Source: Perna viridis
Lineage: Eukaryota
NCBI GenBank assembly: GCA_037379345.1
Contig: CM074522.1
Coordinates: forward strand, 5,890,001 to 5,954,000
Direction of reading: 5' to 3'
DNA length: 64,000 nt
Part shown: in pieces, positions 13,601 to 22,600 of the stretch
Layout of the letters: each line of letters opens with the position of its first letter
Numbering within the stretch: the stretch's first letter is position 1
Position numbers and translations under genes: made by a program
Notes under the pieces: model-generated
What the model saw: the letters and a program-made list of their open reading frames with translations, nothing else
What the model was told of the DNA's origin: nothing
The model's database searches: none

Positions 13601-16600
13601 ATTGGCCTGGGAAGAGATGCTAATCATATGTTTGTTAAAAAACATATGAATATCTCTTGACAATCATGTGATAAAAATATGTAAATGGAAACATGTGATT
13701 ATCATATGGTACATGTTATAGTCATATGATCTTATTAGATAATTTTTACTTGGAAGCATATGATAATCATGTGATCATCACATGTGAAGTGAAATATGAT
13801 TATTGTTATCACATTTATGTCCTATGATTATCATATGTGGCAAACCATATGATCTCATATGTGGCACTTTCTGCCATGCACGTTTCTTACCTTGTCTGCC
13901 TATCTAGTACAACAAACTGAAACTGTGATCCCTGTATTCCACAATGTTATTTACATGTGTTTGTTTTGAATTTATATAAACATTACACAGATATTCAGTA
14001 CAGTGCATTGATTTCTGACATTAGTACTATCTAAGCACACTCATCGTAAGCTCTTTAAGCATGAATTGAAAGTCTCCAGGAAAAGGGAAATTTGCATTAA
14101 AAACTTTGAGACTGCATTAAAATCACCATTAAACTGCATGTTGCATGTAAATACCTTATCAGAAGTAATAAAATGCTTACAATTATTAATCTGAAGAACA
14201 CCAACACAGAATCTGTATAAAGAAGCTTGACAAAAGATCCACTGCACTTCTTTAAAAACATTTTTAGATAATGTTTCATTGTTGCATTTAAAGTAGAAAC
14301 TACAAATTTTTGACAGTAATGGTTTAGAATTTATAACATTCTTTTAAATGTAACTTTGCTTTTCAAGGTGTTGATCAAATTGAAGATCTGGCTAGCTCTT
14401 TCAAGTATAACTTCACACTGGATACAACAACCTCAGCCACTGCTTACAAGGCAACTATTGGTCTCCAGGCTTGCTACATTTCCCCAGGTACCTGTGAAGA
14501 TTATGAACTGTTGACACAAAGCAACTTTAATTTGAAGACTTGTAGTGGTCGCAGAAGGAGAAGAAGAGCTGTTGCCACAGAGTTAGTTTTTATTTATAGT
14601 GTTTAGTTTCTATTTATAATGTTCAGATTCTATTTTTATTGTTCAGTTTCTATTTATAAAGTTCAGTTTTTATTATAGTGTTTGGATTCTATTTATATTT
14701 TTCAGTTTCTATATATAGTGTTCAGTTTCTATTTACAGTTTTCAGTTTCTAATTATAGTTTTCATTTCTGTTTTTTTTCCATTGTGAATATACCACTGTC
14801 TGTTCATCCATTGGCATGTTTTAGAATGATTCAAAGAAGCTTTAATGAACTTCATCAGTTTAAGTTTTTGTCTTACTAAAAGAATAATTATCTTTTGTTC
14901 TGATTTCTGTTTTACATTTACTTTTTCTCTTCAACATGGAAGATTATCATGGAATTAAAAAAAAAACTATTTACTATTGTTCATATAATCTGATCTGCTT
15001 TTAACTAAATTAATTGTATTTTTTTTTTTTTTGAAGGGGTTGGGTAAAACCAGAATGTCATTGTTTTAACATCTTGATATTTAATATGTACGTGTGTGTA
15101 TTATAGGCCTGATTTATCTAACATGAGGGAAGGCCTTCGGATTTTGAATGAAAGAAATGCTACTGATGCTGAAAAGAATGCATATGTACAAAAAGCCATT
15201 GCTTATAGTGTATGTACATTAATTTTAAGTAATCTCAATTGTCTGAAAGAATTTAGTTGTTGATCAATGTTGTCAGTTAAATCTTTTCAGCTATAATATT
15301 GAGATTATATGGAAGATAAGGAAAGCAAGACTGCACACAAAAAATGAAAGCACTTGCTGTATCAACTGTGTTAAAAAAACTGAGATTGGCATCAAATGCT
15401 TCGAAAGTATAAGCGTATCTTGCAGACAATTCAGAGATTTTAGTAAACAAATCTGTTACTACAAGAAATTTTCATAACAGGAATGTTATTTTACAGGAGG
15501 GTCAGAGGGACTTCACAACCACTGAGCTAGCTGAGGATGACACAAAAACAGGAGTACGATCTGCAATCAAATCTCTTGGACAGGGTAACCCTATGACCGT
15601 TGGTATTACCAAAGAGAAATTCTCTGGAACTTTCAAAGTATCTGGAGGTTTGTAGCAATGAAATATATTTTCTTTTTATTAACAAATATTATAAAACTTT
15701 TATAGTTTGTGCCAATTTTTCATTCTTTAAAACATAGGTTATAGGTTGTGTAAAACCATAAATTTTTACTATGTATTAAATTTCAATCAGTCAATCACGA
15801 GTGGGTGGTATGTTGGAAACACCTTGTCTGTCAGTCTTTCTGTCCATCCAAAAATCATCATATCTTGGCTCCAAATTGATGGATTGATTTCAAACATCAT
15901 ATAGATGGAACATTCAGTGTTAATGATTGCTGTACAATATCAAGTTACTGTACTAAGAGTAATCAAGGGAACCAAGGTTATAGCGGTAATCATAAAAATG
16001 TAATCCAATGACAAAAATCTGACATGGAAAACAGACATACACAACAAAGAACATAAAGTAAGTAAAATCATACATACGAAGTGAAAAAAGCAAATGAGCA
16101 ACTCGGACTCCACTAAAACTGGGAGTATGGACCAGGTGCACTGGTAGGGCAAACGTCCTCAAGAACACAACAACATATGCAACTTCATGTTTGACTTCTT
16201 ATTTTAGGAGAGGAAATCTTCAAAGCTTTGGACTTCGTAGCAGGTGCATCAGAAGAAGCCTATATCATTGGACAGGGTCTGTCAGAGTTGGGAGCTAAGT
16301 TGTTAGGTGATAAGTTGGCCAACATGACAATTGGTGATATAGAAAGTTTACTGGACATGAAAAATATAGACCCCATACTGGTTGCTCAGTTGATGAAGGA
16401 TATGAGAGACTTGGCAAAGGCTCTGGTAAGTGATTAAGTACTTCTCTGTCTAAGAGTCGGGCAAAATGTAAATAAGGTGTGGCACATGAAGGAAAAAAAA
16501 TAAAAAGATTTTATTGCATTAACCAATTAATTATACCTGATAACCACCAGAAATAACCATCAAAGTGTTGTAAATTTGCCTCTTTAAGATATTGATAGGG

Positions 16601-19600: not shown

Positions 19601-22600
19601 CTGGTCATGTACCTTAAACTGACCCCAATCAAGCTGACATTGTATGCTCTGGTAACCCTGGAAGTGAACATCCTTGGTGCTAAAATAAAGAAGACCCTGT
19701 TCAAGGCGAAGTTGTGGCAGTACGCTGCTCCTACCATTACCAAAAAGTTATTAGATAATAGGAAAGGGGAGAGGGATAATACACCACCTGTTATTGGACC
19801 ATTCACTGATGAACCTGGAGCAAGAAAGAAAAGGGTATGATTTCAATAGTTAGATGGACCTCAAATCTGAAGATTTGTTTGGCTTAGGTGTTCAGTATAA
19901 ATCCATTCAAATTGTATTGAAACTGACCATGATATTACTTAGTTGTCTATTTTAACAAATGTTCTTGATACCCCAAACCCCCCCCACCCACCCAACCAAA
20001 AAAAAAAAAAAAATAGGCATCATATGTAGGTGTGCATGAAGGAGTATAATTAATGTTGGAGGACTTAAAGGGGGATAATCTAACTCAAAGGTTTTACATC
20101 TTAATACCTTAGAAGTCCTACTCCTATGTACTTTGATGAAATTCTATAAGATTTGTAGTCATATGTAAATATGCATGATGGAATATGATTATTATTTGAG
20201 GACTCAAAGGGAGGTAAATGAACTTAAGAGTTTTACATATTATGCCATTTGAAGGAGTGCACATTCTCTTTTTAGCTTTCTCTTTTTATTTTTAGTTAAC
20301 TCAGGGGTTGATTAAGACATCACTTTGAGAGGGTAAAAGAGTGGGAGATGAAAACAAAAACAAAAACAAAAACAAAACAAAACCAAAAAAAAACAAGGGA
20401 AAAAAAACAACTGATAACTTCTTGCAATTCTGGTATGGTAATCAATATGAAGAGATTGCTTTATAACAAGTAGTCCTTAGGTTCCAGTTTACATATTCCT
20501 ATCACTGATAGATTTAGGTACTGCCATCTATCAACAACTCTTCACTGGAGTACTCCACTAGTCTATTATGTAGAACATTGACTTGCATTACATGCCAGGA
20601 GCCTAAGGTTTAACCTCTGTTATATATTGCAATAATTCAGGTACTTCTTAGGAGTACTCCTTTAGCAAAGCATCCCTTTACAGTGATTTTGGGTCCAGGA
20701 ATAATTCCAGCTATTACTGTTTTTTGTGCTGTGGAGTGCATCATGCTGTACTGTTACACAATATTTCTATTTTATTTGAGTAAATTCTTGATTGTAGCCA
20801 GAAGATAAGGTAAGACATGGTTGATGAATGAATTATTTTGCAGGGCTAGAATGTTGATGCTTGCAACAGCACTAACTTGATGGCTATGTTTGCGCATATT
20901 AGATTTTAATGCAGTCAGGATTTTTAAACTTTTTCTGCTTTTTTGTACTTGGAACTCATAGCAGCAATTTAGCTGTTTGGTCTCAGTCAGTTCAGGATGT
21001 GAAAAATTGGTATTTCTCAAAATGTTAGATACATTATTCATATGTGTTTATTTTCCTGAGCTTTGCCGTGAGTACTTTTTTACAGAAATAAATACACATC
21101 TAATACATTGTAGAAATTAGTAACATTTCTTCAATGATACTAAAATCATAAAATCAGTAATTGCATATAATGCATATAATTTGTACCAAAGAAAAAGCTA
21201 AAAAATAATCCAGAATAAGTTAAACTATTTCCCAATTGGTAGTCTATATGTAGGATATGGTGTTTCTGTTCAAAATTACATTTATTATTTTGTGACTTTT
21301 CTTTTTCTTGACTTGTCTATAAAATTATTTACTTCAACTTTAAATTCAAGGTTTTGTATGGTGATTCATAATTCCCAATTTAAGAAAAGGATGCCTATTT
21401 CCCAATAAAAAGGGATAAGGTAGTTTTGAAAAAGGCCAGAAATATCTATAAGTGAAAGCACAACTGATGAAAGATCTGTGAAGGATGTTTCAAAAAATGG
21501 TTTCAAAAATTTTAGCACAAACATTAAAAAATTAATCATGGATATTTTATAGACATATTGTTATATCTCAGAGTTGTATTGTGCAAAAACCATGATAATG
21601 ATTTATTGAATAAATCATGAATCTTTTCTTTGAAAATTGAGCATATCCACAGACCTTGGTAAATTGAGGAAACCTTGAAATATAAGGACTCTATGTATCA
21701 AGTATTTGATATTTAGTTGTTTTTTTATGTTCTTCCTTTGCAAGAGGTATATATCAAACATAGTGTCTGTTCATTCTTTTGTTTATTCCTTAACTTTTTG
21801 TTACAATTTTCGCTGAAACTTGATATTTTGACAGAAGCTTTAAATAGGTATACCATATTGTGGGTTTAGTTTTAGAATGAAACAATGTCAACTTCCTGTT
21901 ACACAATTTTCTTTACATTTTGACCATACCGTTACTTTGTTCACATTTTTTTCAAGATTAAAATGGAGTTTGTAGTATTATTTGATTGGTCCATTAAGAA
22001 TTTGAATTGTCCTGATTTTTTTTTATAAACATTTACGGTGATGACTGGATATTATATGTGATGATTAACAATTAATGTACATTATATGAGTATCATCGTA
22101 AAATACAGACTGTATGTTTATGAGGTAGATTTGAGGTTATGCCGAACATTTTCCTTCTCCCACACCTAGAACACATAAAGGCTTTTACAAAACTTTAATA
22201 TTACATCCCCACTGTATTTTTTGTGCAACTAAAAATGTTAAGAATTTGTATTTTATATAAAGGTAGAAGTCTGTTGAGATGTAATTTTTTCCCAATTATG
22301 CCCTATCAATTTTGGCTTTGCAGTAAAGATTAGTTTTCAACACATCCAAAGAATATTGGTTTAATGAAATAATATAACCATTTTCATCATATTGGGTAAT
22401 TATAAAATATAAAGAAAAATGTACTTTTACACTAAAAAAAAACTGCATGGCTGTGTTCATGTTCATCATATAAAATGATGATTGCAGGATAGGTAAAAAA
22501 ATATTAAACTAATATGATGAACTGTGTTTGTGTGTGTGTTTGCTTTCATATGTTTGCTTTGAGCTTTCAGGAAATAGACAAATGGGTTACTTTGAGTTTG

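Follow-up and report, generated by a model that had tools for sequence, protein, structure and literature searches.

Positions 5,890,001 to 5,954,000 of the forward strand of contig CM074522.1 of Perna viridis (NCBI GenBank assembly GCA_037379345.1), a stretch of 64,000 nucleotides that we refer to as the window, lie within a single giant gene of about 168 kb, with at least 183 exons that carry 32.6 kb of coding sequence, whose predicted product is a surface protein of more than 11,000 amino acids. Seven of its exons encode a 369-amino acid module between two basic sites, RRRRRR and RKKR, which the original prediction took for a candidate unit released by furin-type cleavage to act as a lipid-binding or pore-forming effector. 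We propose that its C-terminal half is instead the displaced A-sheet of a large lipid transfer protein (LLTP), a reading we hold to be probable. The features of the module region, all on the forward strand, are as follows.

14550-14567, + strand: RRRRRR polybasic site, a putative proprotein-convertase site (sequence)
14368-14581, 15107-15209, 15497-15647, 16208-16425, 17338-17497, 18564-18789 and 19600-19834, + strand: module exons (in-frame splice)
14568-17394, + strand: helical half, residues 1 to about 181, from exon 14368-14581 to the start of exon 17338-17497 (AlphaFold 2, AF2, of a homologue)
17395-19753, + strand: β half, six long antiparallel strands resembling the LLTP A-sheet (AF2 of a homologue, Foldseek, VIA)
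17338-17497, 18564-18789 and 19600-19834, + strand: exons of the β half (splice model)
19823-19834, + strand: RKKR site (sequence)
20798-20809, + strand: 12-nt micro-exon encoding PEDK (AG/GT flanks; letters of X3 and X8 contigs between 19834 and 24040)

Spliced across the seven exons, the module runs in frame and without a stop from the residue after RRRRRR through RKKR, and comes to exactly the 369 amino acids with no cysteine that had been predicted. Splice support comes from public contigs of four runs (X1, X2, X3 and X8), of which X2, X3 and X8, from three studies, are guessed to be RNA and none is recorded as such. The joints of five of the six module introns are present in contigs of X2, X3 and X8, the sixth (15209/15497) appears in X3, where the joint differs by two letters, and a single X3 contig of 21,249 nt spans the module region; none of the six joints was seen in contigs of X1. 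A helical moment in the N-terminal half and an alternating β pattern in the C-terminal half can be seen in the spliced sequence, as the original prediction had described, and the fold predicted for a homologue agrees. The net charge is +10 over the last 80 residues and +1 over the whole module.

The C-terminal site is not a simple one. In contigs of X3 and X8, the two runs that cover 20798-20809, the micro-exon joins the module to give RKKR-PEDK, with proline at P1', and its skipping was seen in neither run. Proline at P1' blocks proprotein convertases (a point for which we located no source in the open-access literature). After the basic site proline is absent from the Mytilus homologue P0001 and from two paralogues, so the micro-exon could be a lineage-specific or regulated shedding switch.

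The lack of cysteine is mildly unusual but not unique within the parent protein. At 1-2% cysteine the chance of a 369-residue run without it is 0.03-0.0004 per position, and the downstream FN3-like region of the gene model holds a longer one of 670 residues. Moreover, while the upstream repeats are indeed rich in cysteine (4.84%), the region downstream, for which the same had been claimed, is not (2.07%).

The gene itself was modelled as a script-built chain of exons over 174 kb, from which six or more N-terminal exons and several repeat exons are missing. From the N- to the C-terminus it encodes: 1) a signal peptide, a domain of about 600 amino acids resembling the large lipid transfer (LLT) module, an RRKR site, a β-looking region of about 100 amino acids and amphipathic helices; 2) an M23-like domain, a SAP domain (Pfam, 35.7 bits), 34 Cys-rich repeats, RRRRRR, the module and RKKR; and, 3) FN3-like domains with PAN, a further RKKR, EGF, a transmembrane-like segment and a tail. 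Entry into the secretory pathway is indicated, by hydropathy only, by a hydrophobic 13-mer after the first ATG (Kyte-Doolittle 2.72), and the predicted transmembrane segment scores 3.73 on the same scale. The module is thus an internal part of a far larger chain rather than a free-standing unit.

Five paralogues, three long and two short, bring the copies in the 723-Mb genome of P. viridis to six. Both basic sites are present in the parent gene and in two of the five. The two short paralogues (C9:34.59-34.65 Mb and C9:34.69-34.76 Mb), which lie tail-to-tail and are about 4,500 amino acids each, have one Cys repeat each and no upstream basic site that we could see, and the copy on the + strand has three cysteines in the sheet. 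Another paralogue, on C4, carries, inserted among its Cys repeats, a single exon (C4:8,925,037-8,925,612) whose appearance, with a DESGS motif, suggests a von Willebrand A domain.

Between paralogues the central β exon (18564-18789) is the best-kept part of the module, and its closest named matches are in the bivalves Mytilus galloprovincialis (86%) and Tegillarca granosa (78%). A profile search with this exon, run over 1.84 billion representatives, gave 83 proteins; P0071, P0079, P0082, P0083 and P0086 were discarded as unrelated, having matched as multi-stretch short repeats. The original prediction had suggested looking for stand-alone bacterial homologues, and of the 20 that were looked up among the 83 matches six are nameless and none of the others carries a prokaryotic name. 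The named members, from Haliotis, Batillaria, Mytilus, Argopecten, Ylistrum, Potamilus, Mya, Lineus and Branchiostoma, are all labelled 'uncharacterized' or similar, giving a family that ranges over molluscs, a nemertean and amphioxus. An ESM Atlas look-up with P0002 gave a best score of 0.89 and no family, and a metagenome scan gave four loci, with introns in both of those inspected. Five divergent members from ENA records (P0072, P0068, P0044, P0050 and P0058; one is an 845-amino acid product of a 3.6-kb contig) could mean that the family reaches past bilaterians.

Complete homologues carry Vitellogenin_N, M23, SAP, PAN, fn3 and cadherin-like domains, and in the short ones a single chain holds the N-terminal half and the sheet, with about 900-1,000 residues between them. 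Cys-repeat copy number is 0-1 in short homologues and 13 in amphioxus P0013. Near-complete β halves contain one to six cysteines in 14 of 22 homologues and none in the other eight. With 12 near-duplicates and incomplete rows dropped, and bearing in mind that errors in gene models may hide some sites, basic sites were seen after the module in 8 of 23 homologues, within 250 amino acids ahead of it in 4 of 14, and in both places in just one of 14. The absence of cysteine and the twin basic sites therefore appear, across the sequences compared, to mark the long, repeat-expanded forms and not the family as a whole, and conservation of a convertase-released module was not found.

The N-terminus of the protein provides the first link to the LLTPs, in which an LLT module comprises a β-barrel and an α-helical domain (PF01347, Vitellogenin_N). 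HHalign of the protein's own N-terminus against a profile built on six LLTPs of the same genome gave P 79.8, E 1.5e-5 and a score of 52.4, against 24.6 for the best of 30 shuffled controls. Pfam Vitellogenin_N is above cut-off in four of the 27 scanned homologues, many of which are fragments (P0066, 48.5 bits; P0097, 51.9; P0091, 27.9; P0024, 25.7), and databases already label some members automatically with this domain. PF01347 also matches both short paralogues weakly, 14-22 kb upstream of the β exon. Right after the helical domain, at the position of the LLTP C-sheet, all long members have the β-looking region of about 100 amino acids. The genome also holds conventional LLTP genes, namely apolipophorin-like genes in several copies, one that is vitellogenin-like, MTP and a single divergent LLTP (C2:6.33-6.42 Mb, C2:11.06-11.10 Mb, C1:34.3, 67.06 and 69.89 Mb, C4:43.39 Mb).

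The second link is the fold of the β half. We used AF2 on the matching 373 amino acids of the Potamilus homologue P0010 with a 42-row alignment. Mean pLDDT was 76; the helical half was predicted as helices at 34-93, low for residues 58-117, and the β half, at 95-98, as an A-sheet-like array of six long antiparallel strands of 21-27 residues. An earlier model of P0005, made without the last exon, had a mean pLDDT of 51.6 and generic hairpin matches only. A cysteine pair that would join strands 1 and 2, one where strand 1 begins and the other where strand 2 ends, is wholly present in 12 and wholly absent in six of the 18 related homologues, which is consistent with a long hairpin. Across the family one face of strands 1-3 and 5 is almost entirely hydrophobic.

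Searched with Foldseek against 350,542 PDB chains, this model had just two matches at E≤1e-3, both to human MTP (1.3e-5 and 1.1e-4), aligned over residues 722-886, which form its A-sheet; lipovitellin, apoB and bee vitellogenin came next by probability (0.57-0.92), and pore-formers stayed at or below 0.28, with a TM-score of at most 0.10 and an rmsd above 30 Å. Structural alignment with VIA of the top 910 Foldseek chains also placed MTP first (Z 10.6, rmsd 8.1 Å, 157 residues aligned, 15% identity), with model residues 190-356 collinear with MTP 722-886, and apoB (819-1062), vitellogenin (904-1135) and lipovitellin (782-1068) all aligned through their A-sheets (Z 6.4-7.2). In sequence, Pfam MTP_lip_bd (PF19444) matches homologue P0063 with E 2.8e-4, and a 42-row profile of the β half, compared with the LLTPs of the same genome, lands on the A-sheet with E 0.012, above all 60 shuffled controls. 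This sequence evidence for kinship with MTP is weak yet consistent. Taken with the structural matches, it makes it very probable that the sheet is A-sheet-derived, which bears out the lipid-transfer lead of the original prediction (apolipophorin/vitellogenin) in a narrower, MTP-type form.

As the chain opens with an LLT module and later has an A-sheet-like domain, the simplest reading is an LLTP whose sheets are parted by a large insert. PMC6717300 describes the MTP A-sheet as six long strands, half of which face the C-sheet over the lipid site and half of which pack hydrophobically on the N-terminal barrel. In the giant protein the stretch from the C-sheet position to the A-sheet, about 800 residues in the short forms and about 6,800 in this gene, would loop out as an arm made up of helices, the M23-like and SAP domains and the 34 Cys repeats, and the sheet would dock back on its own N-terminal half, so that a lipid pocket like that of MTP is closed. 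Cleavage by convertases at RRKR, at RRRRRR and perhaps at RKKR would leave chains held together without disulfides, as in lipovitellin, whose lipid module, according to PMC12214520, is assembled from separate cleaved chains that remain together. The proline after RKKR would keep the sheet attached to the FN3-like stalk and the predicted transmembrane helix. Such a cell-surface LLTP may catch or pass on lipid, possibly from particles or bacteria gripped by the M23-like domain. We regard this arrangement, with the module internal to one giant gene and its β half closing the pocket, as somewhat better than an even prospect.

MTP itself is an 894-amino acid ER protein. Its large subunit (PDB 6I7S; PF19444) shares with the giant protein an N-terminal barrel and helical domain in the same chain as the collinear six-strand sheet, but its C- and A-sheets are only about 30 residues apart, and in the giant protein a long FN3-like/PAN stalk and a predicted transmembrane segment come after the sheet. 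Vitellogenin/lipovitellin, apolipophorin II/I and apoB likewise share Vitellogenin_N, convertase-type sites and the structural match in the A-sheet, and lipovitellin's cleaved chains that stay together offer a precedent; in contrast, we saw no vWD domain or apoB-type long β-belt in our models. In the portions of the LLTP literature available as text, an M23-like domain, a SAP domain, a Cys-repeat insert and a membrane anchor are not among LLTP features.

Several observations weigh against this interpretation. The folded sequence is that of a homologue and not the window's own module, and the model superimposes poorly on MTP (rmsd 8-11 Å, TM-score by query 0.20). When VIA was run widely, against 48,161 representatives, bacterial outer-membrane β-barrels took the first nine places (Z 8.0-8.9; rmsd 3-5 Å, 4-9% identity), with LLTP chains at just Z 6.5-7.2 and MTP, there another entry, at 6.5, so that geometry alone fails to single out LLTPs. 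MTP_lip_bd is under its cut-off (20.8 against 27 bits), with two of the 42 aligned members at E≤0.1, and a shallower profile of nine rows, although it also falls on the A-sheet, gave E 0.24 with five of 40 shuffles higher. At the other end of the chain, the parent gene's N-terminus is not listed in an exon-wise PF01347 search of the genome, the C-sheet-like region gave no significant alignment with an LLTP C-sheet (HHalign E 0.74), and that the N-terminal exons run on into the module rests on the exon model, paralogues and annotated homologues, not on transcripts. The transmembrane-like segment, finally, is found in just four of 13 long homologues.

Part of this is what would be expected if the sheet, though derived from an LLTP, has stopped pairing with the N-terminal half and instead curls or oligomerises by itself, or packs on the helices of the module, as an independent domain of the giant protein that binds lipid or ligand. 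The very long separation in this gene, the non-significant C-sheet homology and the high rmsd to MTP are in keeping with such a change, as are the twin basic sites here and in two paralogues, and JHBP/Takeout chains were among the VIA matches (Z 6.0-6.7, rmsd 4.8-6.8 Å, 135-141 residues aligned), below MTP and the barrels. However, the short homologues hold both halves in one chain, and the near-all-hydrophobic face requires a partner surface, which leaves this an unlikely alternative. It is less likely still that the sheet is a generic amphipathic β-meander, structural or dimerising, with no relation to the A-sheet. The lead of the barrels in the wide search would fit a meander, as would the weak sequence kinship with MTP and PDB sequence searches that, with either profile, returned no match at E≤10, but four partly independent methods converge on the same MTP segment, and a Vitellogenin_N domain stands in the same chain.

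That same domain, which in LLTPs binds the A-sheet non-covalently, also speaks against the module being released as an effector that acts on membranes, forms pores or binds LPS. The idea drew on the missing cysteines, the two basic sites and the basic C-terminal end, one of the 14 homologues does have both sites, and pore-forming perforin-2 and gasdermin topped Foldseek with the model lacking the last exon. Yet those rows had E≥2.3e-3, TM-scores of at most 0.10 and an rmsd of 10-25 Å, they fell away with the complete model, and in VIA pore-former rows span only four strands (Z≤6.4). No MACPF, gasdermin or other β-pore-former Pfam row appeared at E≤0.1 in the 42 members; no MACPF-type or TULIP row was prominent in VIA, an absence that amounts to no exclusion. 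MACPF/CDC proteins and gasdermins do have long amphipathic hairpins, and proteolytic activation would be analogous, but with matches this weak and partial, and an LLTP context here, the likeness is that of generic long hairpins. Proline after RKKR, the features not shared by the family and the central β exon, which paralogues conserve most, all point the same way. Of the original lead, then, lipid transfer was right in a more specific form, and the effector is very improbable, the AlphaFold and Foldseek comparison it had called for, carried out on the homologue, having favoured MTP over the pore-formers.

A split LLTP found from molluscs to amphioxus would, if true, give a function to 'uncharacterized' proteins of 3,000-11,000 amino acids that gene callers fragment, and would be a candidate for taking up lipid at the surface, or for sensing the lipids of microbes, in filter feeders. 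The LLTPs known so far are carriers that are secreted or, in the case of MTP, a loader in the ER, and a membrane-anchored member with a discontinuous pocket would extend the superfamily. It would also remove a false lead, as a Cys-free stretch with two basic sites is no evidence for a released toxin. We found no description of this architecture in open-access text, and the mollusc LLTP survey PMC10799875, in the part available, names only Vtg, Apo and MTP types. More speculatively, and with prospects well below even, these proteins may constitute a bilaterian LLTP subfamily not described before, made up of giant split proteins anchored in the membrane. Its lipid pocket would be put together from halves as far as about 7,000 residues apart, an extensible Cys-repeat arm would be tipped with a non-catalytic peptidoglycan-binding M23 domain, and a micro-exon would set tethering of the lipid head against shedding. 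On the cell surface such a machine would hold on to bacteria or food particles and take out or sense the lipids in them.

The M23-like and SAP-like domains (L013:1330-2390 and L013:5645-5803, library coordinates) sit inside the insert. Peptidase_M23 (PF01551) is above cut-off in homologues P0023 and P0029. The first histidine of the HxxxD motif is absent in the parent gene and in eight of the ten homologues in which the motif was located, because of which binding is the likelier role than lysis or catalysis; the LECT2/M23 fold is the system for comparison. SAP domains are usually nuclear and DNA-binding, whereas here one occurs in a predicted extracellular protein. The remaining features of the gene in the window are the following.

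1-14549, + strand: exons of the last six or seven of 34 Cys-rich tandem repeats of about 190 amino acids (gene model; repeat-exon hidden Markov model, HMM)
24042-64000, + strand: FN3-like/PAN stalk exons (gene model; fn3, PAN and cadherin-like matches in homologues)
25620-26033, + strand: PAN exon (Pfam scan)
within exon 59004-59429, + strand: further RKKR (sequence)

The repeat array starts about 63 kb upstream of the window and keeps a fixed exon pattern, its 34 copies being the repeat-exon HMM count. The single repeat exons tested matched no Pfam family at E≤0.05 (one DPY row had E 0.32), and the repeats have low pLDDT in the P0005 model. The EGF domain, the predicted transmembrane segment and the tail lie just past the window end. 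Intronic minisatellites occupy 26396-28173 (33 bp x 54), 40730-41487 (40 bp x 19) and 61632-61912 (31 bp x 9), the first giving rise to long spurious open frames, and at intronic dispersed repeats (window 15950-16120 and 25100-25480) contig depth is very high in all four runs.

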